From Balanoglossus misakiensis (taxonomy: Eukaryota; Animalia; Hemichordata): a stretch of DNA of 64,000 nucleotides. Of this stretch, positions 3,087-64,000 are shown piece by piece; the stretch's first letter is position 1, and each line of letters starts with the position of its first letter. The notes under the pieces are model-generated. The model made no database searches and was not told where the DNA came from. It saw only the letters and a list, made by a program, of their open reading frames with translations. Made by a program: the position numbers and the translations under genes. The stretch lies in assembly GCA_040954595.2 (NCBI GenBank), contig CM082592.2:1116001-1180000 (forward strand), given 5' to 3'.

Positions 3087-3392
3087 TACGGGCCCAAGCC
3101 AAGCCAGGCTTGGGCCCGTATTGGTTTCGTTGGGGTTTTTACGGGCCCAAGCCAAGCCAGGCTTGGGCCCGTATTGGTTTCGCTGGGGTTTTTAGGGCCC
3201 AAGCGCAAGCAAGCGCTTGGGCCCTATTGGTTTCGTTGGAATTTTTCTTTCTTGCTTGCTTTCTTTCTTTCTTTCTTTCTTTCTTAGGGCCCAAGCGCAC
3301 GCAAGCGCTTGGGCCCTATTGGTTTCGTTGGAATTTTTAGGGCCCAAGCGCAAGCCAGCGCTTGGGCCCTATTGGTTTCGTTGGGGTTTTTC
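3087..3392 (+). repeat. Stack of 5 element 5' heads (34-nt hairpin plus TTGGTTTCGTTGG(GG/AA)TTTTT)
   Basis: Hairpins start at ~3087, 3140, 3193, 3285 and 3338, e.g. TAGGGCCCAAGCGC-AAGCCA-GCGCTTGGGCCCTA. Confidence 0.9.
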
Positions 3393-6300
3393 TTTCTTCT
3401 TTCTTTCTTTATTCTTGTGTCAATTCTTTGTCGCTCTAGATCTCAGACACCACTGCAGGTACACTTCTGAAACTTGCTACAGTGGTCAAGGTCAATGAGT
3501 AGTCGTGCATTGAACTCTTGAATTTTTAATTAGTCACGTGACATGGCGGCCATATTGGATTTTCTGAAAAAATGCAAATCTCAGATCTCAGAAACTACAA
3601 GTCAGATTTACTTCAGATTTGGTGTGCTGGTAGTGTACCTTCTGCCCATCATTTTTGTAATTGGATATTTTGCTGTCAATGTTGCAGTTTTTTTGCTACA
3701 GTTGTTTTTCTGAAATCTGGCTTAAATTTCAAAAATCTTCTTCTCCAGAACCGGCGATAACCGAGTCACGCGGTTTGGGGTATGTGGTCACCAAGCTGAG
3801 GTCTATCAAGTTTGCGAAGATCATTGTGATTGGTCGAAGATTTTGGCGGCCATATTGGATTTTAAAAAAACCCTAGTAAAATTTCAAAAATCTTCTTCTC
3901 AAGAACCGGCGATAACTGAGTCACAAGATTTGGTGTGTTTGGTCATTAAACAGATGTCTATCAAGTTTGCGAAGAGGAATGTGATTGGTCGAAGATTATG
4001 GCGGCCATACTGGATTTTGTGAAAAACGATTAAAAAGTAAAAATTCCCTTTCTAGCCTAAAAATTGATAGCACAAAAATTCTTTTTACGGATATGAATCA
4101 TCATATGCCAAGAATAAGCTATAAATATTTTGGTAATTTTGGCAATGACCTTTGACCTACTTTTGACACATCGTTTTTTCTGCATATCTAATTCCAGGCT
4201 AACCTATAGGGCTATCATTTTGGTTTTTGATGTATGTGGATTTGTATGTGATCAAAAAATTTCGCTACTTTTCATGACCCCTTTGACCTCTGCTGACCTC
4301 ATTAAATATGCACATACCTAATTACAGATGAACCAATAGACCTAGAGGTTTGGTTTTTGTTGGACATGGACCAGTATTGGGTCAAAATTTGTTGCCCAAA
4401 TGTTGGGTGACCTCGGGTGACCTTTGACCTACTTTTGCATATCTCGACATCCACAGCAGATACAGCCTTGGCGTTTGGAGGTATGGGGCCATAATGAAAA
4501 GCCAAAATTTTGGGTCATCTGTGACACCTGCTTAACTCATTATTTATGTGCATACCTAATTCCAGGCTAACCAAAAGGGCTAGAGGTCTGGTTTTTGTTG
4601 GACATGGACCACTATTGGTCAAAATTTTCTGCCCAAATTTTGGGTGACCTCAGATGACCTTTGACCTACTTTTGCATATCTCGGCATCCAAAGCAGGTAC
4701 AGCCTTGGCATTTGGAGATATGGGGCCATAATGAAAAGCCAAAGTTTTGGGTCACCAGTGACACCTGCTTAACTCATCATTTATGTGCATACCTAATTCC
4801 GGGCTAACCAAAAGGGCTAGAGGTCTGTTTTTGTTGGACATGGACCACTATGGGTAAAATTTTCTGCCCAAATTGTGGGTGACCTCTGGGAGACCTTTGA
4901 CCTACGTAACACTATATCAGCACCAAACATACATATAACCTTGATATTTCATGGGATAAAACACAGCATTATGTTTCTACTCATTAATTATGTGCATATC
5001 TAATAATCAGATCAGATAATAGAGCTTGGGCCCGGACAATGCTGCTTGCAGCTTTAATTCTTTCTTTCTTTCTTTCTTTATTCTTGTGTCAATTCTTTGG
5101 GCAACGAGATCTCAGACACCGCTGCAGGTACACTTCTCAAACTTGCTACAGTGGTCAAGGTCAATGAGTAGATGTGCAGTGACTTGTGAATACTTAATTA
5201 GTCACGTGACCTGGCGGCCATATTGGATTTTCTGAAAAAAATCAAATCTCAGATCTCAGAAACTACAAGTCAGATCGACTTCAAATTTGGCATGCAGGTA
5301 GACTACCTTCTACCCATCATTTGTGTAATTGGAAATTTTGCTGTCAATGTTGCAGTTTTTTTGCTACAGTTGTTTTTCTCAAATCTGGCTTAAATTTCAA
5401 AAATCTTCTTCTCCAGAACCAGTGATAACCGAGACACGGGGTTTGGGGTATGTGGTCACCTAACTGATGTCTATCAAGTTTGCGAAGATCATTGTGATTA
5501 GTTGAAGATTATGGCGGCCATATTGGATTTTCGAAAAACCATAGTAAAACTGCAAAAATCTTCTTCTCCAGAACGACCGATGACTGAGTCGCAAGATTCG
5601 GGGAGTATGGTCACTACACTGATGTCTATCAAGTTTGCAAAGAGCATTGTGATTGGTCGAAGATTATGGCGGCCATATTGGATTTTGTAAAAAGCAGTGA
5701 CAAATTGAAATTCCTTTTTCTAGTCTAAAAATTGATAGCATACAAATTCTTTTTATGGATATCAGTCGTCATGTGACTAAAATATGCTACAATTTTTTGG
5801 TGATTTTTCACATGACCTTTGACCTACTTATCATGCGTTATTATTTCTGCATATCTAATTCCAGGCTAACCTATAGGGCTAGAGGTTTGGTTTTTGATGA
5901 ATGTGGATTAGTGTGTGATCAAAATATTTTGCTACTTTTCATGACCCCTTTGACCTCTGCTGACCTCATTAATTATGTGCATAGCTAATTTCAGGCGAAC
6001 CAATAGAGCTAGAGGTTTGATTTTTGTTGGACATGGACCAGTATGGGATCAAAATTTTTGCCCAAATTTTGGGTGACCTCTGGTGACCTTTGACCTACTT
6101 TCGCATATCTCAGCATCCAGAGCAGATACAGCCATGGCATTTGGCAGGATGGGACCAAAATGTAAAGCACATTTTTTGGTCACCTGTTACACCTGCTGAC
6201 CTCATTAAATATGCACATACCTAATTACAGGCGAACCAATAGAGCTAGAGTTTTGGTTTTTGTTGGACATGGACCAGTATGGGTAAAAAAAAAATTGCCC

Positions 6301-7925
6301 AAATGTTGGGTGACCTCAGGTGACCTTTGACCTACTTCACCCTATTTCAGCAGCAAAAATACATACGTCCTTGTTTTGTCATGAGATAATACACCCGATA
6401 GAAAATTATATTTCTTCTCATTCATACTGTGCATATATAATTCGAGATCAGCGCTTGGGCCCGACAATGCTGCTTGCAGCTTTAATTCTTTCTTTCTTTC
6501 TTCTTTCTTTATTCTTGTGTCAATTCTTTGTCGCTCTAGATCTCAGACACCACTGCAGGTACACTTCTGAAACTTGCTACAGTGGTCAAGGTCAATGAGT
6601 AGTCGTGCATTGAACCCTTGAATTTCTAATTAGTCACATGACCTGGCAGCCATCTTGGATTTTCTGAAAATATGCAAATCTCAGATCTCAGAAACTACAA
6701 GTCAGATCGACTTCAAATTTGGCGTGCAGGTAGACTACCTTCTGCTTATCATTTTTGTAATTGGAAATTATGCTGAAAAAGTTGCAGTTTTTTTGCTACA
6801 ATTTTTTTTCTGAAATCTGGCTTAAATTTCAAAAATCTTCTTCTCCAGAACCGGTGATAACCGAGACACTGGGTTTGGGGTATGTGGTCACCAAACTGAG
6901 GTCTATCAAGTTTGCGAAGATCATTGTGATTGGTCGAAGATTATGGCGGCCATATTGGATTTTCGAAAAACCCTAGTAAAATTTCAAAAATCTTCTTCTC
7001 AAGAACCAGCGATAACCGAGTCACAAGATTTGGGGAGTATGGTCACTACACTGATGTCTATCAAGTTTGCGAAGATCATTGTGATTGGTCGAAGATTTTG
7101 GCGGCCATATTGGATTTTGTGAACAACGATTAAAAAGTAAAAATTCCCTTTCTAGCCTAAAAATTGATAGCACAGAAATTCTTTTTATGGATATGAATCA
7201 TCATATGCCAAGAATAAGCTGTAAATATTTTGGTAATTTTGGCAATGACCTTTGACCTACTTTTGACGCATCATTTTTCTGCATATCTAATTCCTGGCTA
7301 ACCAATAGGGCTATAAGTTTGGTTTTTGATGTATGTGGATTTGTATGTGATCAACAAATTTTGCTACTTTTCATGACCCCTTTGACCTCTGCTGACCTCA
7401 TTAAATATGCACATACCTAATTACAGATGAACCAATAGACCTAGAGGTTTTGTTTTTGTTATACATGGACCACTATGGGTCAAAATTTTCTACCCAAATT
7501 TTGGGTGACCTCAGATGACCTTTGACCTACTTTTGCATATCTCAGCATCCAAAGCAGGTACAACCTCGGCGTTTGGAGGTATGGGGCCATAATGAAAAGC
7601 CAAAGTTGTGGGGTCACCTGTGACACCTGCTTTACGCATTATTTATGTGAATACCTAATTCCGGGTTAACCAAAAGGGCTAGAGGTCTGGTTTTTGTTGG
7701 ACATTGACCACTATGGGTCAAAATATTCTGCCCAAATTGTGGGTGACCCCTGGGTGACCTTTGACCTACTTAACACTATATCAGCACCAAACATAGATAT
7801 AACCTTGATATTTCATGGGATAAAACACTGCATTATGTTTCTACTCATTAATTATGTGCATATCTAATAATCAGATCAGATAATAGAGCTTGGGCCCGGA
7901 CAATGCTGCTTGCAGCTTTAATTAT

Positions 7926-8222
7926 TAGGGCCCAAGCGCAAGCCAGCGCTTGGGCCCTATTGGTTTCGTTGGGGTTTTTAGGGCCCAAGCGCAAGCAAGC
8001 GCTTGGGCCCTATTGGTTTCGTTGGAATTTTTAGGGCCCAAGCGCAAGCCAGCGCTTGGGCCCTATTGGTTTCGTTGGGGTTTTTTAGGGCCCAAGCGCA
8101 AGCCAGCGCTTGGGCCCTATTGGTTTCGTTGGGGTTTTTCTGTCTTTCCTTCTTTCTTCTTTCTTCTTTAGGGCCCAAGCGCATACCAGCGCTTGGGCCC
8201 TATTGGTTTCGTTGGGGTTTTT
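7926..8222 (+). repeat. Stack of 5 element 5' heads
   Basis: Hairpins start at ~7926, 7979, 8032, 8086 and 8169. Confidence 0.9.
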
Positions 8223-9352
8223 CTGTCTTTCCTTCTTTCTTCTTTCTTTCTTTATTCTTGTGTCAATTCTTTGTCGCTCTAGATCTCAGACACCGCTGCA
8301 GGTACACTTCTCAAACTTGCTACAGTGGTCAAGGTCAATGAGTAGTCGTGCATTGAACCCTTGAATTTTTAATTAGTCACGTGACCTGGCGGCCATATTG
8401 GATTTTCTGAAAAAATGCAAATCTCAGATCTCAGAAACTACAAGTCAGATCGACTTCAAATTTGGTGTGTAGGTAGTCTACCTTCTACCCATCATTTTTG
8501 TAATTGGATATTTTGCTGTAAATGTTGCAGTTTTTTTGCTACAATTTTTTTTCTGAAATCTGGCTTAAATTTCAAAAATCTTCTTCTCCAGAACCTGTGA
8601 TAACTGAGTCACGCGGTTTGGAGTATGTGGTCACCTAACTGATGTCTATCAAGTTTGCGAAGATCATTGTGATTGGTCGAAGATTATGGCGGCCATATTG
8701 GATTTTCGAAAAACCATAGTAAAACTTCAAAAATCTTCTTCTCAAGAATGGGCGATAACCGAGTCACAAGATTTGGTGTGTGTGGTCATTAAACAGATGT
8801 CTATCAAGTTTGCGAAGGGGAATGTGATTGGTCAAAGATTATGGCGGCCATATTGGATTTTGTGAAAAACGATTAAAAAGTAAAAATTCCTTTTCTAGCC
8901 TAAAAATTGATAGCACAGAAATTCTTTTTATGGATATGAATCATCATATGACAAGAATAAGCTATAAATATTTTGGTAATTTTGGCAATGACCTTTGACC
9001 TACTTTTGACGCATCATTTTTCTGCATATCTAATTGCAGGCTAACCAATAGGGCTATAAGTTTGGTTTTTGATGTATGTGGATTTGTATGTGATCAAAAA
9101 ATTTTGCTACTTTTCATGACCCCTTTGACCTCTGCTGACCTCATAAAATATGCACATACCTAATTACAGATGAACCAATAGACCTAGAGGTTTTGTTTTT
9201 GTTATACATGGACCAGTATGGGGTCAAAATATTTTGCCCAAAATTTTGGGTGACCTCGGGTGACCTTTGACCTACTTAACACTATATCAGCATCAGATCA
9301 GATAATAGAGCTTGGGCCCGGACAATGCTGCTTGCAGCTTTAATTCTGTCTT

Positions 9353-9460
9353 TAGGGCCCAAGCGCAAGCCAGCGCTTGGGCCCTATTGGTTTCGTTGGG
9401 GTTTTTTAGGGCCCAAGCGCATACCAGCGCTTGGGCCCTATTGGTTTCGTTGGGGTTTTT
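9353..9460 (+). repeat. Stack of 2 element 5' heads
   Basis: Hairpins start at ~9353 and 9407. Confidence 0.9.
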
Positions 9461-12400
9461 CTGTCTTTCTTTCTTTCTTTCTTTTTTCTTGTGTCAATTC
9501 TTTGTCGCTCTAGATCTCAGACACCGCTGCAGGTACACTTCTGAAACTTGCTACAGTGGTCAAGGTCAATGAGTAGTCGTGCATTGAACCCTTGAATTTT
9601 TAATTAGTCACGTGACCTGGCGGCCATATTGGATTTTCTGGAAAAATGCAAATCTCAGATCTCAGAAACTACAAGTCATATCGACTTCAAATTTGGTGTG
9701 CAGGTAGTCTAACTTCTACCCATCATTTTTGTAATTGGATATTTTGCTGTAAATGTTGCAGTTTTTTTGCTACAATTTTTTTTCTGAAATCTGGCTTAAA
9801 TTTCAAAAATCTTCTTCTCCAGAACCGGTGATAACTGAGTCACGCGGTTTGGGGTATGCGGTCACCTAACTGATGTCTATCAAGTTTGCGAAGATCATTG
9901 TGATTGGTCGAAGATTATGGCGGCCATATTGGATTTTCGAAAAACCATAGTAAAACTTCAAAAATCTTCTTCTCAAGAACGGGCGATAACCGAGTCACAA
10001 GATTTGGTGTGTGTGGTCATTAAACAGATGTCTATCAAGTTTGCGAAGAAAAATGTGATTGGTCGAAGATTATGGCGGCCATATTGGATTTTGTGAAAAA
10101 CGATTAAAAAGTATAAATTCCTTTTCTACCCTAAAAATTGATAGCACAGAAATTCTTTTTATGGATATGAATAATCATATGCCAAGAATAAGCTATAAAT
10201 ATTTTTGTAATTTTGGCAATGACCTTTGACCTACTTTTGACGCATCATTTTTCTGCATATCTTATTCCAGGCTAACCAATAGGGCTATAAGTTTGGTTTT
10301 TGATGTAAGTGGATTAGTATGTGATCAAAATATTTTGCTACTTTTCACGACCCCTTTGACCCCTGATGACCTCATTATGTGCATAGCTAATTACAGGCGA
10401 ACCAATAGACCTAGAGGTTTTGTTTTTGTTGGGCAGGACCAGTATGGGGTCAAATGTTTTTACCCAAATGTTGGGTGACCTCTGGTGACCTTTGACCTAC
10501 TTTCGCAAATCTCAGCATCCACAGCAGATACAGCCTTGGCGTTTGGAGGTATTGGGCCATAATGAAAAGCCAAAGTTTTGGGTCACCTGTGACACCTGCT
10601 TAACTCATTATTTATGTGCATACCTAATTCCGGGCTAACCAAAAAAGCTAGAGGTCTGGTTTTTGTTGGACATGGACCACTATGGGTCAAAATTTTCTGC
10701 CAAAATTGTGGGTGACCTCTGGGTGACCTTTGACCTACTTAACACTATATCAGCACTAAACATAGATATAATCTTGATATTTCATGGGATAAAACACAAC
10801 ATTATGTTTCTACTCATTAATTATGTGCATATCTAATAATCAGATCAGATAATAGAGCTTGGGCCCGGACAATGCTGCTTGCAGCTTTAATCTTTCTTCT
10901 TTCTTTCTTTCTTTATTCTTGTGTCAATTCTTTGTCGCTCTAGATCTCAGACACCGCTGCAGGTACACTTCTGAAACTTGCTACAGTGGTCAAGGTCAAT
11001 GAGTAGTCGTGCATTGAACCCTTGAATTTTTAATTAGTCACGTGACATGGCGGCCATATTGGATTTTCTGAAAAAATGCAAATCTCAGATCTCAGAAACT
11101 ACAAGTCAGATTTACTTCAGATTTGGTGTGCTGGTAGTGTACCTTCTGCCCATCATTTTTGTAATTGGATATTTTGCTGTCAATGTTGCAGTTTTTTTGC
11201 TACAATTTTTTTTCTGAAATCTGGTCAAAATTTCAAAAATCTTCTTCTCCAGAACCGGCGATAACCGAGTCACGCGGTTTGGGGTATGTGGTCACCAAAC
11301 TGAGGTCTATCAAGTTTGCGAAGATCATTGTGATTGGTCGAAGATTATGGCGGCCATATTGGATTTTCGAAAAACCCTAGTAAAATTTCAAAAATCTTCT
11401 TCTCAAGAACCGGCGATAACTGAGTCACAAGATTTGGTGTGTGTGGTCATTAAACAGATGTCTATCAAGTTTGCGAAGATGAATGTGATTGGTCGAAGAT
11501 TATGGCGGCCATATTGGATTTTGTGAAAAACGATTAAAAAGTAAAAATTCCCTTTCCAGCCTAAAAATTGATAGATCAGAAATTCTTTTTAATGGATATG
11601 AATCATCATATGCCAAGAATAAGCTAAAAATATTTTGGTAATTTTGGCAATGACCTTTGACCTACTTTTGACGCATCATTTTCCTGCATATCTAATTCCA
11701 GGCTAACCAATAGGGCTATAAGTTTGGTTTTTGATGTATGTGGATTTGTATGTGATCAAAAAATTTTGCTACTTTTCATAACCCCTTTGACCTCTGTTGA
11801 CCTCATTAAATATGCACATACCTAATTAATGATGAACCAATAGACCTAGAGGTTTTGTTTTTGTTATACATGGACCAGTATGGGGTCAAAATATTTTGCC
11901 CAAATGTTGGTGACCTCGGGTGACCTTTGACCTACTTAACACTATATTAGCATCAGATCAGATAATAGAGCTTGGGCCCGGACAATGCTGCTTGCAGCTT
12001 TAATTCTTTCTTTCTTCTTTCTTTATTCTTCTGTCATTTCTTTGTCGCTCTAGATCTCAGACACCACTGCAGGTACAGTTCTCAAACTTGCTACAGTGGT
12101 CAAGGTCAATGAGTAGTCGTGCATTGAACCCATGAATTTTTAATTAGTCACATGACCTGGCGGCCATCTTGGATTTTCTGAAAAAATGCAAATCTCAGAT
12201 CTCAGAAACTACAAGTCAGATCGACTTCAAATTTGGCGTGCAGGTAGACTACCTTCTGTCAAACATTTTTGTAATTGGAAATTATGCTGTCAATGTTGCA
12301 GTTTTTTTGCTACAATTTTTTTTCTGAAATCTGGCTTAAATTTCAAAAATCTTCTTCTCTAGAACCGGTGATAACCGAGACACGGGGTTTGGGGTATGTG

Positions 12401-14863
12401 GTCACCTAACTGATGTCTATCAAGTTTGCGAAGAGCATTGTGATTGGTCGAAGATTATGGCGGCCATATTGGATTTTCGAAAAACCCTAGTAAAATTTCA
12501 AAAATCTTCTTCTCGAGAACCGGTGATAACCGAGTCACAAGATTTTGTGTGTGTGGTCATTCACCAGATGTCTATCAAGTTTGCGAAGAGGAATGTGATT
12601 GGTCGAAGATTATGGCGGCCATATTGGATTTTGTGAAAAACGATTAAAAAGTAAAATTTCCCTTTCTAGCCTAAAAATTGATAGCACAGAAATTCTTTTT
12701 ATGGATATGGATCATCATATGACTACAATATGCTATAAATATTTTGGTAATTTTGGCAATGACCTTTGACCTACTTTTGACGCATCATTTTTCTGCATAT
12801 CTAATTCCAGGCTAACCAATAGGGCTATAAGTTTGGTTGTTGATGTATGTGGATAAGTGTGTGATCAAAATTTTTTGCTACTTTTCACGACCCCTTTGAC
12901 CCCTGCTGACCTCATTAATTATGTGCATAGCTAATTACAGGCGAACCAATAGACCTAGAGGTTTTGTTTTTGTTGGACAGGACTAGTATGGGGTCAAAAA
13001 ATTTTACCCAAATGTTGGGTGACCTCTGGTGACCTTTGACCTACTTTTGCAAATATCAGCATCCACAGCAGATACAGCCTTGGCGTTTGGAGGTATGGGG
13101 CCATAATGAAAAGCCAAAGTTGTGGGTCACCTGTGACACCTGCTTAACTCATTATTTATGTGCATACTTAATTCCGGGCTAACCAAAAGTGCTATAGGTC
13201 TGGTTTTTGTTGGACATGGACCACTATGGGTCAAAATTTTCTGCCCAAATTATGGGTGACCTCTGGGTGACCTTTGACCTACTTAACACTTTATCAGCAC
13301 TAAACATAGATATAACCATGATATTTCATGGGATAAAACACAGCATTATGTTTCTACTCATTAATTATGTGCATATCTAATAATCAGATCAGATAATAGA
13401 GCTTGGGCCCGGACAATGCTGCTTGCAGCTTTAATTCTTTCTTCTTTCTTTATTCTTGTGTCAATTCTTTGTCGCTCTAGATCTCAGACACCGCTGCAGG
13501 TACACTTCTGAAACTTGCTACAGTGGTCAAGGTCAATGAGTAGTCGTGCATTGAACCTGTGAATTTTTAATTAGTTACGTGACCTGGCGGCCATATTGGA
13601 TTTTCTGAAAAAATGCAAATCTCAGATCTCAGAAACTACAAGTCAGATCGACTTCAAATTTGGTGTGCAGGTAGTCTACCTTCTACCCATCATTTTTGTA
13701 ATTGGATATTTTGCTGTAAATGTTGCAGTTTTTTTGCTACAATTTTTTTTCTGAAATCTGGCTTAAATTTCAAAAATCTTCTTCTCCAGAACCGGTGATA
13801 ACTGAATCACGCGGTTTGGGGTATTTGGTCACCTAACTGATGTCTATCAAGTTTGCGAAGATCATTGTGATTGGTCGAAGATTATGGCGGCCATATTGGA
13901 TTTTCGAAAAACCATAGTAAAACTTCAAAAATCTTCTTCTCAAGAACGGGCGATAACCGAGTCACAAGATTTGGTGTGTGTGGTCATTAAACAGGTGTCT
14001 ATCAAGTTTGCGAAGGGGAATGTGATTGGTCGAAGATTATGGCGGCCATATTGGATTTTGTGAAAAACGATTAAAAAGTAAAAATTCCTTTTCTAGCCTA
14101 AAAATTGATAGCACAGAAATTCTTTTTATGGATATGAATCATCATATGACAAGAATAAGCTATAAATATTTTGGTAATTTTGGCAATGACCTTTGACCTA
14201 CTTTTGACGCATCATTTTTCTGCATATCTAATTCCAGGCTTACCAATAGGGCTATAAGTTTGGTTTTTGATGTATGTGGATTTGTATGTGATCAAAAAAT
14301 GTTGCTACTTTTCATGACCCCTTTGACCTCTGGTGACCTCATTAAATATGCGCATACCTAATTAATGATGAACCAATAGACCTAGAGGTTTTGTTTTTGT
14401 TATACATGGACCAGTATGGGGTCAAAATATTTTGCCCAAATGTTGGGTGACCTCGGGTGACCTTTGACCTACTTTTGCATATCTCGACATCCACAGCAGA
14501 TACAACCTTGGCGTTTGGAGGTATGGGGCCATAATGAAAAGCCAAAGTTTTGGGTCACCTTTGACACCTGCTTAACTCATTATTTATGTGCATACCTAAT
14601 TCCTGGCTAACCAAAAGGGCTAGAGGTCTGGTTTTTGTTGGACATGGACCACTATGGATCAAAATTTTCTGCCCAAATTGTGGGTGACCTCTTGGTGACC
14701 TTTGACCTACTTAACACTATATCAACACCAAACATAGATATAACCTTGATATTTCATGGGATAAAACACAGCATTATGTTTCTACTCATTAATTATGTGC
14801 ATATCTAATAATCTGATCAGATAATAGAGCTTGGGCCCGGACAATGCTGCTTGCAGCTTTAAT

Positions 14864-15045
14864 TAGGGCCCAAGCGCACGCAAGCGCTTGGGCCCTATTG
14901 GTTTCGTTGGGGTTTTTTAGGGCCCAAGCGCATGCAGCGCTTGGGCCCTATTGTTATTATCCTGGTTTTTCTTCTACTTCTTCTTCTTCTTAGGGCCCAA
15001 GCCCAGCAGGCTTGGGCCCTATTGGTATTACTGGGGTTTTTCTTC

Positions 15046-15077
<32 letters not shown>

Positions 15078-15085
15078 CTTCTTCT
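14864..15085 (+). repeat. Stack of 3 element 5' heads followed by a (TTC)n microsatellite
   Basis: Hairpins start at ~14864, 14918 and 14991. The last is a variant, TAGGGCCCAAGCC-CAGCA-GGCTTGGGCCCTA. (TTC)n spans ~15040-15085. Confidence 0.9.
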
Positions 15086-29195: not shown

Positions 29196-29227
<32 letters not shown>

Positions 29228-32200: not shown

Positions 32201-32234
32201 GCTTGGGCCCGGACAATGCTGCTTGCAGCTTTAA

Positions 32235-33063: not shown

Positions 33064-33099
33064 CTATAAAATGGAAATAAAGAAAGAAGATGCATACAG

Positions 33100-46200: not shown

Positions 46201-47504
46201 TAGGTCAAAGGTCATGTGAAAAATCGCCAAAAATTTGTAACATATTTTAGTCATATGACGATTGATATCCATGAAAAAAATTTGTATGCTATCAATTTTT
46301 AGACTAGGAAAAGGAATTTCAAGTTTTCACTGCTTTTTACAAAATCCAATATGGCCGCCATAATCTTCACAATGCTCTTTGCAAACTGGATAGACATCAG
46401 TGTAGTGACCATACTCCCCGAATCTTGCGACTCAGTTATTGCCCGTTCTGGAGAAGAAGATTTTTGCAGTTTTACTATGGTTTTTCGAAAATCCAATATG
46501 GCCGCCATAATCTTCGACCAATCACAATGCTTCTTATCAAACTTGATAGACATCAGTTAGGTGACCACATACCCCAAATCCCGCGACTCGGTTATCGCCG
46601 GTTCTTGAGAAGAAGATTTTTGAAGTTTTAGTTGGATTTTTCGAAAATCCAATATGGCGGCCAAAGTCACGTGACCGCTCGAGATTTTATTATCAAACTT
46701 TGTTGGGCAGAGGCCATGTGTACTATGTACCAAATTTGAACTTGATTTGCCTTGTAGTTTTTGAGAAGAAGTCATTTACATTTTTTCAGAAAATCCAATA
46801 TGGCCGCCAGGTCACGTGACTAATTAAATATTCACGAGCCACTGCACATCTACTCATTGACCTTGACCACTGTAGTAAGTTTGAGCGGTGTACCTGCAGT
46901 AGTTTCAGAGATTTAGTTGGCCGAAGAATTGACAGGAGAATAAAGAAAGAAAAATTCCAACGAAACCAATAGGGCCCAAGCGCTTGCGCGCGCTTGGGCC
47001 CTAATTAAAGCTGCAAGCAGCATTGTCGGGCCCAAGCGCTGATCTCGAATTATATATGCACAGTATGAATGAGAAGAAATAGAATTTTCTATCGGGTGTA
47101 TTATCTCATGACATAACAAGGACGTATGTATTTTTGCTGCTGAAATAGGGTGAAGTAGGTCAAAGGTCACCTGAGGTCACCCAACATTTGGGCAATTTTT
47201 TTTTTTACCCATACTGGTCCATGTCCAACAAAAACCAAAACTCTAGCTCTATTGGTTCGCCTGTAATTAGGTATGTGCATATTTAATGAGGTCAGCAGGT
47301 ATAACAGGTGACCAAAAAATGTGGCTTTACATTTTGGTCCCATCCTGCCAAATGCCATGGCTGTATCTGCTCTGGATGCTGAGATATGCGAAAGTAGGTC
47401 AAAGGTCACCAGAGGTCACCCAAAATTTGGGCAAAAATTTTGATCCCATACTGGTCCATGTCCAACAAAAATCAAACCTCTAGCTCTATTGGTTCGCCAG
47501 AAAT

Positions 47505-52699: not shown

Positions 52700-55488
52700 T
52701 ATAGCTGCAAGCAGCGATGACGGGCCCAAGCTTAAGCCGAAGGTCAAAGGTCATAAGAGGTCACCCGAAATTTGGGCAAGAAATTTTGACCCCCATACTG
52801 GTCCGTGTCCCACAAGAACAAAATCTCTAGCCCTATTGGTTCGCCTACAATTAGGTATGCGCATAATTAATGAGATAAAGTGTAAGGCTCCATCAGGAGT
52901 TCCATCCCTCCAAATGCCAAGGCTGTATCTGCTGTGGATGCCGAGATATGGTAAAGTAGGTCAAAGGTCACCTGAGGTCACCCAAAATTTGGGCAAAAAA
53001 TTTTGACCCCATACTGGTCCATGGTCAGCATAAATCAAACCTCTAGCCCTATTGCTTAGCCTGGAATTAGGTATGCACATAATTAATGAGATAAGCAGGT
53101 GTCACAGGTGACCCCAATTTTGGCTTTTCAATTTTAGTCCCAACCCTCCAAACGCCAAGTCTGTACCTGCTCTGGATGCGGAGATATAGGAAAGTAGGTC
53201 AAAGGTCACCTGAGGTCACCCAAAATTTGGGCAAGAAATTTTGACCCTATACTGGTCCATGTCCCACAAGAACGAAACCTCTAGCCCTCTTAGTTAACCC
53301 AGAATTAGGTATGCACATAATTAATGAGTTAAGCAGGTGTCACAGGTGACCCCCAGTGTTGCCTTTTCAATTTTAGTCCCAACCCTCCAAACGCCAAGTC
53401 TGTACCTGCTCTGGATGCCAAGATATAGGAAAGTAGGTCAAAGGTCACCTGAGGTCACCCAAAATTTGGGCAAGAAATTTTGACCCTATACTGGTCCATG
53501 TCCCACAAGAACGAAACCTCTAGCCCTCTTATTTAGCCCAGAATTAGGTATGCACATAATTAATGAGTTAAGCAGGTGTTACAGGTGAGCCTAAAATTGT
53601 GCCTTTTATTTTGGTGCCATTGTGCTCACCGACCAATAGACAGTCACTGTACAGGACTATTGCACAGACCAGAATTCCACAATAAGACATGGACATAGCT
53701 TATCCATAGAGGTATAAGTAAAGGTATTATTTAATAAAAAAATTAATATAAAAAAATCGGTCGATTTTTCATACTATTTTTTTTCGCTTAAAATTATTGA
53801 CAAATGCTAGGCTAGCTGCATACCAAAGTTGAAGAAGATTGGCCTGACAGATTTTGAGATATGTATGCATATTTATCCAAAATAATATGTGGTCATGGCT
53901 TTACTATGGAAAGTATAGGCCCATGGCTTGGTAAAAAATATGAAAAATAATACTTAAAAATCTTCTTCTCAAAATTGGAATGGCCAATGGCCTTGACATT
54001 TGGCATGTAGAACCCTGGCCACATGGTCCGCAAAAGTTGCTAAAAGAATTTTGATATCTCCATTCATATGCAAATTAGGTCGATTTGAAAACTTTGCCCA
54101 TATATGGTCATCAGGTCACGTGACTAATTTAACATTCACAAGGGTACTGCACTAGCTCTCATTGGCCTGCACCATTGTGCCAAATGTGAGATTTGTAGGT
54201 TCAGCCGTTTTCAAGATCTAGCTGGACAAAAAAATGACACAAGAAGAAGAAGAAGTAGAAGAAATATAGCTGCAAGCAGCAATAGCGGGCCCAAGCCAAC
54301 ATGCACATAGCAACATAGCAATAAGCATATCTGCTCTTGATGCCAAGATATGGTAAAGTAGGTCAAAGGTCAACTGAGGTCATGTTATATTTGGGCAAGA
54401 CATTTTTACCGTATACTGGTCCATGTTCAACAAAAACCAAACCTATAGCCCTATTGGTTAGCCTGGAATTAGGTATGCACATAATTAATGAGGTAGGCAG
54501 GTGTCACAGGTGACCCCCAATTTTGGCTTTTCACTTTCAGTCCTAACCCTCCAAACGCCAAGTTTGTACCTGCTCTTGATGCCAAGATATGGTAAAGTAG
54601 GTCAAAGGTCACCTGAGGTCATGCAAAATGTGGGCAAGAAATTTTGACCCTATACTGGTCCATCTTCAACAAAAACCAAACCTATAGCCCTATTGGTTAG
54701 CCTGGAATTAGGTATGCACATAATTAATGAGGTAGGCAGGTGTCACAGGTGACCCCCAATTTTAGCTTTTCAATTTTAGTCCCAACCCTCCAAACGCCAA
54801 GTCTGTACCTGCTCTGGATGCCAAGATCTGGTAAAGTAGGTCAAAGGTCACCTGAGGTCATGCAAAATGTGGACAAGAAATTTTGACCCTATACTGGTCC
54901 ATCTTCAACAAAAACCAAACCTATAGCCATATTGGTTAGCCTGGAATTAGGTATGCACATAATTAATCAGATATGCAGGTGTCACAGGTGACCTCCATTT
55001 TGGCTTTTCAATTTTAGTCCCAACTCTCCAAACGCCAAGTGTGTACCTTCTCTGGATGCCGAGATATAGGAAAGTAGGTCAAAGGTCACCTGAGGTCACC
55101 CAAAATTTGGCCCTGACATTTGGCATGTAGAACCCTGGCCATATGGTCTGTAAAACTTGCTAAAAGAATTTTGATATGTCCATTCATATGCAAATAAGGC
55201 CAATTTGAAAATTTTGTCCTTATATGGTCATCAGGTCACGTGACTAATTAAACATTCACAAGGGTACTGCACTAGCTCTCATTGGCCTGCACCATTGTGC
55301 CAGGTTTGAATTTGGTAGGTTTAGCCGTTTTCCAGATCTACCTGGCCGAAAAAACGACAGAAGAAGAAGAAGAAGAAGAAGAAAAAGAAAAACTCCAGTA
55401 AAAACAATAGGGCCCAAGCCTGCTGGGCTTGGGCCCTAAAAACCCCAGTAATACCAATAGGGCCCAAGCCTGCTGGGCTTGGGCCCTA
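52700..55488 (-). mobile_element. Two nested divergent-subfamily elements (type C at 52700-54263; internally deleted type D at 54264-55370) preceded by two matching variant heads
   Basis: The heads at 55408-55438 and 55458-55488 carry the CAGCA-loop variant also seen at 14991. Both bodies start with the type C sequence (..TAGATCT(T/G)GAAAACGGCT..). Confidence 0.8.
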
Positions 55489-55761
55489 AAAAACCCCAAC
55501 GAAACCAATAGGGCCCAAGCGCTGGTATGCGCTTGGGCCCTAAGAATTAAAAATTCCAACGAAACCAATAGGGCCCAAGCGCAAGCAAGCGCTTGGGCCC
55601 TAAAAATTCCAACGAAACCAATAGGGCCCAAGCGCTTGCGTGCGCTTGGGCCCTAAAAACCCCAACGAAACCAATAGGGCCCAAGCGCTGGTATGCGCTT
55701 GGGCCCTAAAAACCCCAACGAAACCAATAGGGCCCAAGCGCTGGTATGCGCTTGGGCCCTA
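55390..55761 (-). repeat. Stack of 7 element 5' heads
   Basis: Hairpins at ~55408, 55458, 55509, 55569, 55622, 55675 and 55728. Confidence 0.9.
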
Positions 55762-58700
55762 ATTAAAGCTGCAAGCAGCATTGTCGGGCCCAAGCGCTGA
55801 TCTTGAATTATATATGCACAGTGTGAATGAGAAGAAACAGAATTTTCTATCGGATGTATTATCTCATGACATAACAAGGATGTGTGTATTTTTGCTGCTG
55901 AAATAGGGTGAAGTAGGTCAAAGGTCACCTGAGGTCACCCAACATTTGGGTAATTTTTTTTTACCCATACTGGTCCATGTCCAACAAAAACCAAACCTCT
56001 AGGTCTATTGGTTCGCCTGTAATTAGCTATGCACATAATTAATGAGGTCAGCAGAGGTCAAAGGGGTCATGAAAAGTAGCAAAATATTTTGATCACACAC
56101 TAATCCACATTCATCAAAAACCAAACGTCTAGCCCTACAGGTTAGCCTGGAATTAGATATGCAGAAATAATAACGCGTGATAAGTAGGTCAAAGGTCATG
56201 TGAAAAATCGCCAAAAAATTGTAACATATTTTAGTCACATGACGATTGATATCAATAAAAAGAATTTGTATGCTATCAATTTTTAGACTAGAAAAAGGAA
56301 TTTCAATTTTTCACTGCTTTTTACGAAATCCAATATGGCCGCCATAATCTTCGACCAATCACAATGTTCTATGCAAACTTGATAGACATCAGTGTAGTGA
56401 CCATACTCCCCGAATCTTGCGACTCAGTCATCGCCCGTTCTGGAGAAGAAGATTTTTGGAGTTTAACTATGGTTTTTCGAAAATCCAATATGGCCGCCAT
56501 AATCTTCAGCCAATCACAATGATCTTCGCAAACTTGATAGACATCAGTTAGGTGACCACATACCCCAAACCCCGTGTCTCGGTTATCACCGGTTCTGGAG
56601 AAGAAGATTTTTGAAATTTAAGCCAGATTTCAGAAAAAAAATTGTAGCAAAAAAACTGCAACACTGTAGCAAAATTTCCAATTACAAAAATGATGGGTAG
56701 AAGGTAGTCTACCTGCATGCCAAATTTGAAGTCGATCTGACTTGTAGTTTCTGAGATCTGAGATTTGATTTTTTTCAGAAAATCCAATATGGCCGCCAGG
56801 TCACGTGACTAATTAAGTATTCACAAGTCACTGCACATCTACTCATAGACCTTGACCACTGTAGCAAGTTTGAGCAGTGTACCTGCAGTAGTTTCAGAGA
56901 TTTAGTTGGCCGAAGAATTGACACAAGAATAAAGAAAGAATTAAAGCTGCAAGCAGCATTGTCCGGGCCCAAGCTCTATTATCTGATCTGATTATTAGAT
57001 ATGCACATAATTAATGAATAGAAACATAATGCTGTGTTTTATCCCAAGATCTATCAAGGTTATATCTATGTTTGGTGCTGATATAGTGTTAAGTAGGTCA
57101 AAGGCACCCAGGGGTCACCCACAATTTGAGGAGAATATTTTGACCCATAGTGGTCCATGTCCAATAAAAACCAGACCTCTAGCCCTTTTGGTTAGCCCGG
57201 AATTAGGTATGTACATAAATAATGAGTTAAGCAGGTGTCACAGGTGACCCAAAACATTGGCTTTTCATTATGGCCCCATATCTCCAAATGCCAAGGCTGT
57301 ACCTGCTTTGGATGCCGAGATATGCAAAAGTAGGTCAAAGGTCATCTGAGGTCACCCAAAATTTGGGCAGAAAATGTTTACCCATAGTGGTCCATGTCCA
57401 ATAAAAACCAGACCTCTAGCTGTATTGGTTCACCTGTAATCAGTTATGCACATAATTAATGAGGTCAGCAGAGGTCACAGGTGACCCAAAACTTTGGCTT
57501 TTCATTATGGCCCCATATCTGCAAATGCCAAGGCTGTACCTGCTTTGGATGCCGAGATATGCAAAAGTAGGTCAAAGGTCACCGGAGGTCACCCAACATT
57601 TGGGCAAAATATTTTGACCCCATACTGATCCATGTCCAAAAAACCCCAAACCTTTAGGTCTATTGGTTAATCTGTAATTAGGTATGCGCATATTTAATGA
57701 GGTCACCAGAGGTCAAAGGGGTCATGAAAAGTAGCAAAATTTTTTGATCACGTACAAATCCACATACATCAAAAACCAAACTTATAGCCCTATTGGTTAG
57801 CCTGGAATTAGATATGCAGAAAAATGATTTGTCAAAAGTAGGTCAAAGGTCATTGCCAAAATTACCAAAATATTTATAGCTTATTCTTGTCATATGATGA
57901 TTCATATCCATAAAAAGAATTTCTGTGCTATCAATTTTTGGGCTAGAAAAGGAATTTTTACTTTTTAATCGTTTTTCACAAAATCCAATATGGCCGCCAT
58001 AATCTTCGACCAATCACATTCCCCTTCGCAAACTTGATAGACATCTGTTTAATGATCACACACACCAAATCTTGTGACTCGGTTATCGCCAGTTCTGGAG
58101 AAGAAGATTTTTGAAGTTTTACTATGGTTTTTCGAAAATCCAATATGGCCGCCATAATCTTCGACCAATCACAATGATCTTCGCAAACTTGATAGACATC
58201 TGTTAGGTGACCACATACCCCAAACGGCGTGACTCGGTTATCGTCGGTTCTGGAGAAGAAGATTTTTGAAATTTAAGCCAGATTTCAGAAAAAAAATTGT
58301 AGCAAAAAAACTGCAACATTGTCAGCATAATTTCCAATTACAAAAATGATAGGCAAAAGGTAGTCTACCAGCATGCCAAATTTGAAGTTGATCTGACTTG
58401 TAGTTTCTGAGATCTGAGATTTGCATTTTTTTAGAAAATCCAAGATGGCCGCCAGGTCACGTGACTAATTAAAAATTCACAGGTTCAATGCACGACTACT
58501 CATTGACCTTGACCACTGTAGCAAGTTTCAGAAGTGTACCTGCAGCGGTGTCTGAGATCTAGAGCGACAAAGAATTGACACAAGAATAAAGAAAGAAAGA
58601 AGAAAGAAGGAAAGACAGATTAAAGCTGCAAGCAGCATTGTCCGGGCCCAAGCTCTATTATCTGATCTGATTATTAGAAATGCACATAATTAATGAGTAG

Positions 58701-61700
58701 AAACATCAAAGGTCACCCAGGGGTCATCCACAATTTGGGCAGAACATTTTGACCCATAGTGGTCCATGTCCAACAAAAACCAGACCTCTAGCCATTTTGG
58801 TTAGCCCGTAATTAGGTATGCACATAAATAATGAGTAAAGCAGGTGTCACAGGTGACCCAAAACTTTGGCTTTTCATTATGGCCCCATACCTCCAAATGC
58901 CAAGGCTGTATCTGCTGTGGATGTCGAGATATGCAAAAGTAGGTCAAAGGTCACCCGAGGTCACCCAACATTTTGGCAAAATATTTTGACCCCATACTGG
59001 TCCATGTATAACAAAAACAAAATCTCTAGGTCTATCGGTTCATCTGTAATTAGTTATGTGCATATTTAATGAGGTCAGCAGAGGTCAAAGGGGTCATGAA
59101 AAGTAGCAAAATTTTTTGATCACATACAAATCCACATACATCAAAAACCAAACTTATAGCCCTATTGGTTAGCCTGGAATTAGATATGCAGAAAAATGAT
59201 TCGTCAAAAGTAGGTCAAAGGTCATTGCCAAAATTACCAAAATATTTATAGCTTATTCTTGTCATATGATGATTCATATCCATAAAAAGAATTTCTGTGC
59301 TATCAATTTTTAGGCTAGAAACGGAATTTTTACTTTTTAATCGTTGTTCACAAAATCCAATATGGCCGCCAAAATCTTCGACCAATCACAATGATCTTCG
59401 CAAACTTGATAGACATCAGTGTAGTGACCATACTCCCCAAATCTTGTGACTCGGTTATCGCTGGTTCTTGAGAAGAAGATTTTTGAAATTTTACTAGGGT
59501 TTTTCGAAAATCCAATATGGCCGCCATAATCTTCCACCAATCACAATGATCTTCGCAAACTTGATAGACCTCAGTTTGGTGACCACATACCCCAAACCGC
59601 GTGACTCGGTTATCGCCGGTTCTGGAGAAGAAGATTTTTGAAATTTTGACCAGATTTCAGAAAAACAACTGTAGCAAAAAAACTGCAACATTGACAGCAA
59701 AATATCCAATTACAAAAATGATGGGTAGAAGGTAGACTACCTGCACACCAAGTTTGAAGTCGATCTGACTTGTAGTTTCTGAGATCTGAGATTTGCATTT
59801 TTTCAGAAAATCTAATATGGCCGCCAGGTCACGTGACTAATTAAAAATTCAAGGGTTCAATGCACATCTACTCATTGACCTTGACCACTGTAGCAAGTTT
59901 GAGAAGTGTACCTGCAGTGGTGTCTGAGATCTAGAGCGACAAAGAATTGACACAAGAATAAAGAAAGATTAAAGCTGCAAGCAGCATTGTCCGGGCCCAA
60001 GCTCTATTATCTGATCTGATTATTAGATATGCACGTAATTAATGAGTAGAAACATAATGCTGTGTTTTATCCCATGAAATATCAAGGTTATATCTATGTT
60101 TGGTGCTGATACAGTGTTAAGTAGGTCAAAGGTCATCCAGGGGTCACCCACAATTTGGGCAGAATATTTTGACCTATAGTGGTCCATGTCCAACAAAAAC
60201 CACACCTCTAGCCCTTTTGTTTAGCCTGGAATTAGGTATGCACATAATTAATGAATTAAGCAGGTGTCACAGGTGACCCAAAACTTTGGCTTTTCATTAT
60301 GGCCCCATACCTCCAAACGCCAAGGCTGTATCTGCTGTGGATGCTGAGATATGCGAAAGTAGGTCAAAGGTCACCAGAGGTCACCCAACATTTGGGTAAA
60401 AAATTTTGACCCCATTCTTGTCCTGTCCAACAAAAACAAAACATCTAGGTCTATTGGTTCACCTGTAATTAGCTATGCACATAATTAATGAGGTCAGCAG
60501 AGGTCAAAGGGGTCATGAAAAGTAGCAAAATTTTTTGATCACATACAAATCCACATACATCAAAAACCAAACTTATAGCCCTATTGGTTAGCCTGGAATT
60601 AGATATGCAGAAAAATGATGCATCAAAAGTAGGTCAAAGGTCATTGCCAAAATTACCAAAAAATTTATAGCTTATTCTTGTCATATGATGATTCATATCC
60701 ATAAAAAGAATTTCTCTGCTATCAATTTTTAGGCTAGAAAGGGAATTTTTACTTTTTAAACATTTTTCACAAAATCCAATATGGCCGCCATAATCTTCGA
60801 CCAATCACATTCCTCTTCGCAAACTTGCAAGACATCTGTTTAATGACCACACACACTAAATCTTGTGACTCGGTTATCGCCGGTTCTTGAGAAGAAGATT
60901 TTTGAAATTTTACTAGGGTTTTTCGAAAATCCAATATGGCCGCCATAATCTTCGACCAATCACAATGATCTTCGCAAACTTGATAGACATTAGATAGGTG
61001 ACCACATACCCGAAACCCCGTGTCTCGGTTATCACCGGTTCTGGAGAAGAAGATTTTTGAAATTTCAGCCGGATTTCAGAAAAAAAATTGTAGCAAAAAA
61101 ACTGCAACATTGACGGCAAAATATCCAATTACAAAAATGATGGGTAGAAGGTAGACTACCTGCACACCAAATTTGAAGTCGATCTGACTTGTAGTTTCTG
61201 AGATCTGAGATTTGCATTTTTTCAGAAAATCCAATATGGCCGCCAGGTCACGTGACTAATTAAAAATTCAAGGGTTCAATGCACGACTACTCATTGACCT
61301 TGACCACTGTAGCAAGTTTGAGAACTGTACCTGCAGTGGTGTCTGAGATCTAGAGCGACAAAGAATTGACACAAGAATAAAGAAAGAATTAAAGCTGCAA
61401 GCAGCATTGTCCGGGCCCAAGCTCTATTATCTGATCTGATGCTGATATAGTGTTAAGTAGATCAAAGGTCACCCGAGGTCACCCAACATTTAGGCAAAAT
61501 ATTTTGACCCCATACTGGTCCATGTATAACAAAAACAAAACCTCTAGGTCTACTGGTTCATCATTAATTAGGTATGTGCATATTTAATGAGGTCAGCAGG
61601 GGTCAAAGGGGTCACAAAAAGTAGCAAAATATTTTGATCACACACTAATCCACATACATCAAAAACCAAACTTATAGCCCTATTGGTTAGCCTGGAATTA

Positions 61701-64000
61701 GATATGCAGAAAAATGATGTGTCAAAAGTAGGTCAAAGGTCATTGCCAAAATTACCAAAATATTTATAGCATATTCTTGTCATATGATGATTCATATCCA
61801 TAAAAAGAATTTCTGTGCTATCAATTTTTAGGCTAGAAAGGGAATTTTTACTTTTTAATCGTTTTTCACAAAATCCAATATGGCCGCCATAATCTTCGAC
61901 CAATCACATTCCTCTTCGCAAACTTGATAGACATCTGTTTAATGACCACACACACCAAATCTTGTGACTCGGTTATCGCCGGTTCTTGAGAAGAAGATTT
62001 TTGAAATTTTACTAAGGTTTTACGAAAATCCAATATGGCCGCCATAATCTTCGACCAATCACAAAGATCTTCGCAAACTTGATAGACATCAGATAGGTGA
62101 CTACATACCCTAAACCCCGTGTCTCGGTTATCACCAGTTCTAGAGAAGAAGATTTTTGAAATTTAAGCCGGATTTCAGAAAAAAAATTGTAGCAAAAAAA
62201 CTGCAACATTGACAGCAAAATATCCAATTACAAAAATGATGGGTAGAAGGTAGACTACCTGCACACCAAATTTGAAGTCGATCTGACTTGTAGTTTCTGA
62301 GATCTAAGATTTGCATTTTTTCAGAAAATCCAATATGGCCGCCAGGTCACGTGACCAATTAAAAATTCAAGGGTTCAATGCACATCTACTCATTGACCTT
62401 GACCACTGTAGCAAGTTTCAGAAGTGTACCTGCAGCGGTGTCTGAGATCTAGAGCGACAAAGAATTGACACAAGAAAAAAGAAAGAAAGAAAGAAAGAAA
62501 GACAGAAAAACCCCAACGAAACCAATAGGGCCCAAGCGCTGGCTTGCGCTTGGGCCTTAATTAAAGCTGCAAGCAGCATTGTCCGGGCCCAAGCTCTATT
62601 ATCTGATCAGATTATTAGATATGCACATAATTAATGAGTAGAAACATAATGCTGTGTTTTATCCCATGAAATATCAAGGTTATATCTATGTTTGGTGCTG
62701 ATATAGTGTTAAGTAGGTCAAAGGTCATCTGAGGTCACCCAAAATTTGTGCAGAAAATTTTGACCCATAGTGGTCCATGTCCAACAAAAACCAGACCTCT
62801 AGCCCTTTTGGTTAGCCCGGAATTAGGTATGCACATAAATAGTGAGTAAAGCAGGCGTCACAGGTGACCCAAAACTTTGGCTTTTCATTATGGCCCCATA
62901 CCTCCAAATGCCAAGGCTGTGCCTGCTTTGGATGCTGAGATATGCAAAAGTAGGTCAAAGGTCATCTGAGGTCATCCAAAATTTGGGCAAAAAATTTTGA
63001 CCCCATACTGGTCCATGTCCAACAAAAACCAAACCTCTAGCTCAATTGGTTCGCCTGTAATTAGCTATGCACATAATTAATGAGGTCAGCAGAGGTCAAA
63101 GGGGTCATGAAAAGTAGCAAAATATTTTGATCACACACTAATCCACATGCATCAAAAACAAAACGTCTAGCCCTATAGGTTAGCCTGGAAATAGATATGC
63201 AGAAATAATAATGTGTGAAAAGTAGGTCAAAGGTCATGTGAAAAATCGCCAAAAATTTGTAACATATTGTAGTCATATGACGATTGATATCCATAAAAAG
63301 AATTTGTATGCTATTAATTTTTATACTAGAAAAAGGAATTTTAATTTTTCACTGCTTTTTACAAAATCCAATATGGCCGCCATAATCTTCGACCAATCAC
63401 ATTCCTCTTCCCAAACTTGATAGACATCTGTTTAATGAACACACACACCAAATCTTGCGACTCGGTTATCGCCGGTTCTTGAGAAGAAGATTTTTGAAAT
63501 TTTACTAGGGTTTTTCGAAAATCCAATATGGCCGCCATAATCTTCGACCAATCACAATGATCTTCGCAAACTTGATAGACATCAGTTAGGTGACCACATA
63601 CCCCAAACCCCGTGTCTCGGTTATCACCGGTTCTGGAGAAGAAGATTTTTGAAATTTAAGCCAGATTTCAGAAAAAAAATTGTAGCAAAAAAACTGCAAC
63701 TTTGTCAGCATAATTTCCAATTACAAAAATGATTGACAGAAGGTAGTCTACCTGCACGCCAAATTTGAAGTTGATCTGACTTGTAGTTTCTGAGATCTGA
63801 GATTTGCATTTTTTCAGAAAATCCAAGATGGCCGCCAGGTCATGTGACTAATTAAAAATTCATGGGTTCAATGCACGACTACTCATTGACCTTGACCACT
63901 GTAGCAAGTTTGAGAACTGTACCTGCAGTGGTGTCTGAGATCTAGAGCGACAAAGAATTGACAGAAGAATAAAGAAAGAAGAAAGAAAGAAAGAATTAAA

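Follow-up and report, generated by a model that had tools for sequence, protein, structure and literature searches.

How a long array of co-oriented, satellite-like repeats is built is the question raised by a stretch of 64,000 nucleotides from the hemichordate Balanoglossus misakiensis (GenBank assembly GCA_040954595.2, contig CM082592.2, positions 1,116,001 to 1,180,000), hereafter called the window. Long arrays of Helitron-type elements are usually credited to rolling-circle concatemers or unequal crossover. The two arms that together make up 93 % of the window are very probably something else, namely piles of elements paired last-in-first-out, in which each copy inserted into the run of five T or into the microsatellite behind the 5' hairpin of a resident copy. 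An earlier note on this DNA had proposed such repeated, co-oriented self-insertion. Its claims were followed up with tests internal to the window, complemented by contigs of public sequencing runs of one sample and by pattern scans.

Anatomy and layout of the two arms

The elements are non-coding and 1.1-1.9 kb long, and neither arm contains a stop-to-stop frame of more than 159 amino acids. In order, an intact copy consists of TT, an 11-bp subterminal repeat, a 13-14-bp hairpin, a spacer ending in GGGG or GGAA, five T, a tract and the body. The tract is (CTTT)n or (CTT)n, and T-run and tract together span 16-47 nt in 11 intact elements. The body carries two 155-bp and two to four 237-239-bp internal repeats. 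On its 3' side follow the complement of the subterminal repeat and, 4-5 nt short of the terminus, a GCTGC/GCAGC stem-loop. Pattern scans found 30 heads (H, the 5' hairpin ends) and 40 tails (T, the 3' ends), in which the 5' subterminal repeat starts 2 nt from the end and its complement, 10-13 bp long depending on the clade, stops about 24 nt before the 3' end. The 5' hairpin has a stem of 13-14 bp and a loop of 5-6 nt, with energies of -16.8 and -18.9 kcal/mol in the two heads that were folded. The GCTGC/GCAGC palindrome was present in 40/40 tails with one to two changes allowed in the pattern, and its fold is weak (-3.0 and -3.8 kcal/mol). TT precedes all 30 heads and T follows all 40 tails, as TT in 31 and as a single T in nine. 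Insertions are not accompanied by a target-site duplication, and two T are added each time; which end supplies them cannot be told, and some sites must lie between C and T or between T and C.

At least four related families are present: A, B, C and E, plus one odd head type, D. In the tree of bodies, the clades A1 and A2 of family A are about 12 % apart, and in the blocks that they have in common with A, families B, C and E show 70-85 % similarity to it. Family A bodies measure 1,086-1,854 bp, and some carry internal deletions. The intact heads reported near 8214 and 9454 and the TCTGTC halves reported after tails near 9346, 18,827, 24,918 and 27,756 were found as claimed, but the intact-head sequence with its CTGTC motif is not universal, as the motif is present in only 5/9 intact family A elements. 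Three bodies (8206-9343 and 10,891-12,003 on the + strand, 62,522-61,389 on the - strand) have unlike 5' parts and a common 3' deletion (~1,086 bp long), which suggests mosaic subfamilies or gene conversion among copies.

Kolobok and piggyBac, which are cut-and-paste elements, carry a TTAA target duplication on both sides. Elements of this kind were considered and rejected because T-runs or CTT stand before the stacked heads and because families B and C end in ATAT. Judged by sequence, the copies are likely non-autonomous Helentrons (HINEs), which belong to the rolling-circle type. The plan given for DINE-1/HINE elements in the accessible parts of two papers comprises subterminal inverted repeats, a 5' inverted repeat, a microsatellite, central tandem repeats and a 3' stem-loop (PMC4067079; PMC7492417), and HLE2 elements are described as inserting between T and T (PMC11417382).

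The left arm (2510..32592, + strand) holds 17 heads and 20 tails, with up to eight levels open at once, and is truncated at both outer ends. Written as heads and tails, it reads T HHHHH TTT HHHHH T HH TTTT HHH TTT HH TTTTTTTT. The right arm (34261..64000, - strand) reads T H TTTTT HHHHHHH TTTTTT H TTT HH T H T H TTT; it has 13 heads, 20 tails and a largest stack of seven, and leaves the window at a tail/tract junction. The stacks of 5, 5, 2, 3 and 2 on the left and of up to seven on the right, as reported earlier, came out the same in the pattern scans, and a relaxed search of both strands yielded no additional heads. The earlier balance of 17 heads against 19 complete bodies is right in its counts, with 19 tails past 3087, but not in the word complete, since some bodies are internally deleted. 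The arm does not start at 3087 either. Its true start is near 2510, where a 5'-truncated clade A2 body with its tail (2510..3085, + strand, the tail at 3053-3085) is 90 % alike to the body at 5058 over 570 bp; its own head and any outer heads are missing. The running count of open heads stays at or above zero until 29,194, in agreement with the claimed ~29.2 kb, and turns negative afterwards with the tails at 30,875 and 32,234. Compared with 200,000 shuffles, the heads of the left arm are clustered beyond chance (10 runs, p=0.002), and a count that remains non-negative for this long is also uncommon (p=0.015).

The first stack of five heads, with its pieces of T-run and (CTTT)n tract, lies at 3086..3411 and the second at 7922..8254. 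Two-head stacks, each preceded by a right-half tract piece, occupy 9344..9485 and 20265..20423, and the three-head stack at 14863..15086 combines three types (A, D, B), all on the + strand. The far end of the left arm is formed by a family E body that lacks a head, is truncated on its 3' side and carries a (TTA)n tract (32235..32592, + strand). It is ~77 % alike to family A over 290 bp and may represent the outermost host of the arm.

Evidence for last-in-first-out pairing

The order of families in the largest stack carries most of the argument. The seven-head stack on the - strand (55361..55762) reads A, A, A, A, A, B, C from 55,762 to 55,361 and is followed by bodies in the order C, B, A and onwards. 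The innermost C head belongs to an intact family C element (54264..55439), and the family B body beyond it (52699..54263) has its own head (55,489-55,440) on the far side of the C element. This B head does not differ from that of the intact family B element at 14,990 (14990..17406, + strand), which served as the reference for the split one. In addition, the tract after the C tail is the B tract, and the body following C matches the intact B element. An arrangement of C in B in A requires last-in-first-out insertion.

A second line of evidence uses no subfamily labels. As an intact run has five T and each insertion adds two, the left and right halves of a split run are expected to sum to seven. 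They do so for 13 of the 14 heads that split a T-run (Fisher p=0.005; within-arm permutation p=0.0075), with six-T left halves meeting one-T right halves in 4/5 cases and five-T left halves meeting two-T right halves in 9/9. One of the 13 agreeing pairs (head 3141) was counted on a segment that was later read as a sibling junction. Excision with removal of two T restores the T5 run in the same proportion of cases, 13/14, so that the junctions are indeed the complementary halves that had been described.

Third, head variants pair with the predicted body subfamily. With strict pairing, head class agrees with body clade in 15/19 split elements (null expectation 9.5, p=0.004), and in 16/19 once a proven duplicate, described below, is collapsed. 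Over all 30 heads, last-in-first-out pairing gives 26/30 agreements, compared with 15/30 for first-in-first-out. A label-free nearest-relative test with strict pairing gave p=0.024 for all families and p=0.13 for family A; with the duplicate collapsed, the values were p=0.003 and p=0.015. Single cases point the same way: the near-twin bodies 5058 and 48,434, which lie in opposite arms and differ by 0.6 %, are both paired with a head type seen in 2/30 heads, and body 37,652 receives the same AC-start head as the intact element 41,283. These rare AC-start heads, 42,691 (split) and 41,319 (intact), lie within a segment at 41284..42693 (- strand) and go with the same body clade. Taken together, the family order, the T counts and the class agreement uphold the core claim of the earlier note.

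Several observations weigh against this reading. The head classes were chosen after seeing the data, although they were anchored on 11 intact elements. Head class and body clade disagree in four of the 19 strict pairs (heads 3194, 3141, 14,919 and 55,707). Two misfits of strict pairing also lie in the second five-head stack, where head 8087 would restore a tract that contains the CTGTC motif twice and head 8033 violates the T-count rule. The left arm has two unmatched tails plus two truncated end bodies. The rank correlation of head and body distances was not significant for all families (rho 0.40 vs 0.30, p=0.13) or for family A only (0.05 vs 0.06, p=0.52), remained so after collapsing the proven duplicate, and was higher with first-in-first-out pairing on family A (0.36 vs 0.05); significance (p=0.016) came only when body 6486 was skipped post hoc. 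Furthermore, neither depth versus divergence (rho -0.47, p=0.11, n=13) nor the nearest-relative distance of inner versus outer bodies (p=0.72) showed a significant trend. Finally, body 49,863 is an unequal-exchange duplicate with a period of 1,429 bp, as its first 38/38 informative sites follow body 48,434 and 20 of the last 22 follow body 51,274. The resulting tandem duplication covers 48732..50300 (- strand), and both neighbours contributed to the chimeric body that starts at 49,863.

Some of these misfits can be narrowed down. The rank-correlation test is sensitive to the two rare AC-start heads, one of which is shifted by a single extra body. Body 6486 is without a head, and skipping it post hoc yields 18/19 class matches and pairs head 3194 with body 26,347, whose junction completes the long tract of that head. 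The D-type head 14,919 pairs with a family A body, and because the T counts uphold this pairing, a chimeric element is likely. For heads 8033 and 8087, one head may have been lost and another gained by slippage of the 53-bp unit. The heads of the unmatched outer bodies (30,876 and family E) probably lay in the portion of the arm that was lost before 2510.

The expectation that inner elements are closer to their subfamily consensus, put forward in the earlier note, found weak support in clade A1, in which innermost bodies are 2.8 % and split bodies 3.6 % from the consensus (7 vs 12, p=0.017) and unpaired outer bodies ~4.1 %; the depth and nearest-relative comparisons given above did not bear it out. 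A further line of support comes from two of three public runs of one sample, which may be the assembled one. In these two runs, 4 and 10 contigs covering 14,760-15,400 carry a five-T variant of the head-to-head junction near 14,913, with summed depths of 20,886 of 310,579 and 45,071 of 555,997 (~7-8 %), where depth is not copy number. Head stacks thus seem to exist in the raw data and are probably common in the genome beyond this locus.

Target choice and competing explanations

The T-run of the preceding head accommodates 14 of the 30 heads; a further eight are found at tail-TT-head junctions, one at such a junction with three extra bases and seven in tracts. The sibling junctions, tail-TT-head, would most simply reflect re-use of the same outer T-run. 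Measured from the 5' end of the host, the offset is 50-54 bp in 14/19 stacked cases and 60-92 bp in 5/19, which agrees with the proposed insertion into a T-rich tract ~50-100 bp inside an earlier copy. The statement that stacked heads stop in the T-run applies to the former 14, whereas the other five run on into the microsatellite. The bodies, 49,318 bp in total, contain not a single one of the 30 heads, no head occupies the opposite strand of an arm, and all copies within an arm are co-oriented. Bodies nevertheless offer ~9.6 same-strand and 8.7 opposite-strand runs of T5 or longer each, and even their T7-T8 runs were never used. Within run plus tract, the T-run makes up 26 % of the TT steps, yet it received 14/21 non-sibling sites (p=1e-4).

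Rolling-circle transposases join a single strand into a nicked target, which explains both a strand bias and the absence of a target duplication. In the mechanism proposed here, a Rep/Helicase transposase encoded elsewhere would join a single-stranded copy into the T-rich strand, and this joining would fix the orientation. Each insertion would bring a fresh target and leave the old one usable, so the array would grow from inside and subfamilies would pile up over time. Unequal exchange and slippage may later have edited the pile, with one duplication proven and the loss and gain of single heads as further likely edits. With about even odds, the fixed position ~53 bp inside would reflect binding of the enzyme to the resident head and a cut at the first T-run behind it, beyond a mere preference for long T/C tracts. 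Somewhat short of an even chance, in our estimate, is the more specific proposal that the transposase uses the subterminal repeat and the hairpin at the 5' end of a resident copy as its docking site and integrates into the first T-run, ~53 bp inside this copy. If so, non-autonomous Helentrons would be position-specific, self-targeting elements, the opposite of target immunity. The docking site would then act as a built-in safe harbour and a landing pad common to several families, giving rise to satellite-like arrays of tens of kilobases whose bracket order records the history of family activity. The possibility that the target mimics the joint of a circular intermediate was examined by eye and dropped, as the target shares only T's with the tail-head joint.

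Passive nesting competes with this target-choice step only. Here, the transposase would prefer long T/C tracts anywhere, and nests would form because the elements carry such a tract, with no recognition of the head. This comes close to an even chance. HINEs are described as preferring T-rich targets (PMC4067079; PMC7492417, as far as the accessible text goes), a lepidopteran helitron-like family disrupts (GAAA)n microsatellites according to the title of a report, and Paramecium Helitrons are proposed, in the accessible part of the source, to enter one strand of telomeric repeats, which fixes their orientation (PMC13085455). Within the window, the 7/30 sites further along the tract fit as well, as does the (TTA)n tract of family E, which was likewise used as a target. 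On the other hand, the longer, unused T7-T8 runs in the bodies and the crowding of sites at the first T-run favour guidance by the head.

Less likely by far is the insertion of composite elements, consisting of several heads and one body or of one head and several bodies, that were cut from nests elsewhere and inserted as a block. FoHeli elements with multiple 5' termini are reported from different loci in the accessible part of that study (PMC5148889), and composites could account for the D head 14,919, the odd head 8087 and the extra body 6486. However, multi-head composites predict a surplus of heads, whereas the left arm shows a surplus of bodies, and nowhere else in the window is a pair of neighbouring bodies repeated as a block with an identical junction. 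Moreover, the two-T rule holds for the D head and the tract behind it, and unless D retains a body of its own, the adjoining outer pair (14,865) does not fit. Bodies outnumber heads in the window as a whole. More speculatively, copying from a tail to the first head hairpin would move blocks of one head and several bodies, which would explain body 6486 and identify the origin end of HLE2.

The remaining alternative is the textbook route, in which rolling-circle arrays, as treated in the accessible part of a review (PMC12628747), or unequal crossover expanded the bodies and 53-bp slippage separately multiplied the heads. The proven 1,429-bp duplication, the excess of bodies over heads and the 53-54-bp tandem units formed by the heads speak for it, as do the two of 19 adjacent stacked heads that are identical. 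Among all pairs of heads, however, 10 % are identical, so that stacked heads are not unusually similar to their neighbours, although on average they are somewhat closer (4.4 vs 6.1 differences). For the bodies, 35 complete family A copies with 33 adjacent pairs were compared. Adjacent bodies differ by 8.0 % and the full set of 595 pairs by 8.2 % (p=0.35). For 7/35 bodies the nearest relative is a neighbour and for 28/35 it is not; in 15/35 it belongs to the opposite arm. Over 820 nt, the closest pairs that are not neighbours differ by 0.24 % and 0.6 % and sit in opposite arms. A satellite or concatemer would have neighbours that are more alike and whole units arranged head-to-tail, whereas heads and bodies are separated here. 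Different families are interleaved in bracket order, the elements at tail-TT-head junctions belong to different subfamilies wherever both are comparable, and complementary T counts across up to 25 kb are impossible by independent slippage. As the main builder, this route is therefore largely refuted and very improbable.

Since neighbours are no more alike than random pairs and one duplication is local, unequal exchange has a part in editing the array but is not what produced it. The claim that the arrays arose without rolling-circle concatemers or unequal crossover largely holds for the main builder, while its second half was overstated in view of the proven duplication. At least one further extra body and the two odd heads need secondary events. 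For other suspected duplications (29,195/30,876, 37,652/36,217 and the block 22,071 + 23,489 versus 24,918 + 26,347), the 5' parts are similar, and no matching 3' switch or junction was found. Integration of a circle by homologous recombination was also rejected, as it would yield head-body-head-body rather than stacked heads. In the tract of head 55,601 (55,553-55,542, - strand), the five T are followed by four additional bases, AATT. These could be the footprint of a loss or excision, in which a copy was deleted between TTTA at its start and end junctions.

Surroundings and comparison with known systems

The arms converge on a non-HINE spacer of ~1.7 kb (32593..34260), beside which the outermost body of each is truncated on its 3' side (at 32,592 and, for the last right-arm body, at 34,261). 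Run contigs on 32,120-34,420 cover the spacer at summed depths of mostly 1,500-7,000 with 1-3 % differences and diverge from the window at 34,262, continuing into sequence that is absent from it. This multicopy coverage and the departure of the contigs suggest that the spacer belongs to another repeat. Neither arm was represented by an empty allele in these contigs, an absence that proves nothing. On the - strand, the spacer contains an exon-like frame of 72 codons (32,849-33,064) with AG before and GTAAGT after it, which had no Pfam match and no significant PDB match. Its W and C spacing may resemble that at the end of a C-type lectin domain.

To the left of the array lies the 3' part of a non-LTR (long terminal repeat) retrotransposon, a LINE (long interspersed nuclear element) remnant (1-1441, + strand) that ends in an (ATT)n tail. 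Its reverse transcriptase frame (2-940) matches PF00078 (E 7e-29), and a second frame (817-1299) suggests a frameshift. Fragments at 1550-1760 and 2245-2460, just left of the array, are 70-76 % alike to HINE bodies, and these older HINE-like fragments indicate that the site attracted such elements earlier. A possible exon at ~2339-2450 was dropped, as it overlaps the decayed fragments and contains stops. The only foreign insertion seen in any body is an unrelated inverted-repeat element of 767 bp (15741..16507) inside the intact family B body, with terminal inverted repeats of ~100 bp and a 9-bp target duplication, which we presume to be Mutator-like; the corresponding empty site is present in the B body at 54,263-52,699.

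Outside this genome, the head pattern had 0 matches in metagenomes and the tail pattern had 0 matches in viral contigs. In metagenomes, the tail pattern found two distant relatives (L001 and L002), and no Rep/Helicase gene was seen on inspection of the two contigs. In L001 (71-300), a related tail is directly followed by a TTA tract and a repeat-like body without a hairpin head. This arrangement fits, but does not prove, the same nesting habit in a distant family. In L002 (2921-2520), remnants resembling the tail lie close to a TA run.

Repeated jumping is thus very probably a third route of array building, with heads and bodies arranged as nested brackets as a signature that can be assessed statistically. 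This makes the target choice of the HLE2 transposase testable, along with the order of subfamily activity, which can be read because a host is necessarily older than the element inside it. For annotation there is a warning as well, in that headless 1.4-kb satellite monomers and 53-bp minisatellites are halves of one element.

The idea of self-insertion is already known. What the searched literature did not contain was a depth of eight levels, arrays that fill 93 % of a 64-kb window, or a hot spot fixed ~53 bp inside the element. Likewise, no bracket-matched HINE nests are described there, with subscription journals mostly outside this search and Table S6 and Figure S11 of PMC5148889, which may show deeper nests, excluded from it. 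The following comparisons refer to the accessible parts of the papers. The closest relatives by plan are HINE/DINE-1 elements (PMC4067079) and the oyster Cg_HINE (PMC7492417), which share with the present elements a T-rich target, the lack of a target duplication and of coding capacity, and the plan of the termini. The 3' flank of the present elements is not always TT, being a single T at 9/40 tails. These texts report dispersed single copies and clusters, with tandem Helitron arrays ascribed to terminator bypass, and describe neither bracket nests nor a hot spot behind the element's own head.

The closest precedent for the process is FoHeli, a Helitron2-like element of Fusarium oxysporum, in which duplicated 5' ends of 31-85 nt were explained by self-insertion near the 5' end (PMC5148889). 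The element class and the short duplicated 5' ends are the same. In FoHeli, however, the nest was inferred from products with several heads and one tail plus one nested example, whereas here the closing bodies are in place over up to eight levels and can be matched. Nesting was also proposed for maize Helitrons with multiple termini (PMC3288121); as here, stacked termini belong to different subfamilies, but these are canonical Helitrons with multiple 3' ends. HelenXT233 of Xenopus has two left ends on one autonomous element, and no claim of nesting accompanies it in the text (PMC11417382).

A paper on Xenopus Helitrons treats arrays as rolling-circle products (PMC12001565), and a 2025 review covers rolling-circle arrays, double insertion at the same site and general nesting (PMC12628747). 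Tandem arrays formed by rolling circle or by repeated insertion into the same site are long, co-oriented and shaped by a target preference like those described here, but they consist of whole or truncated units placed head-to-tail. The telomere-targeting Helitrons of Paramecium (PMC13085455) share with the present elements a strand-specific repeat as a target, but there it is a repeat of the host. In the Balanoglossus elements the target lies inside the element itself, and for this reason the arrays grow as nests with separated heads and bodies.

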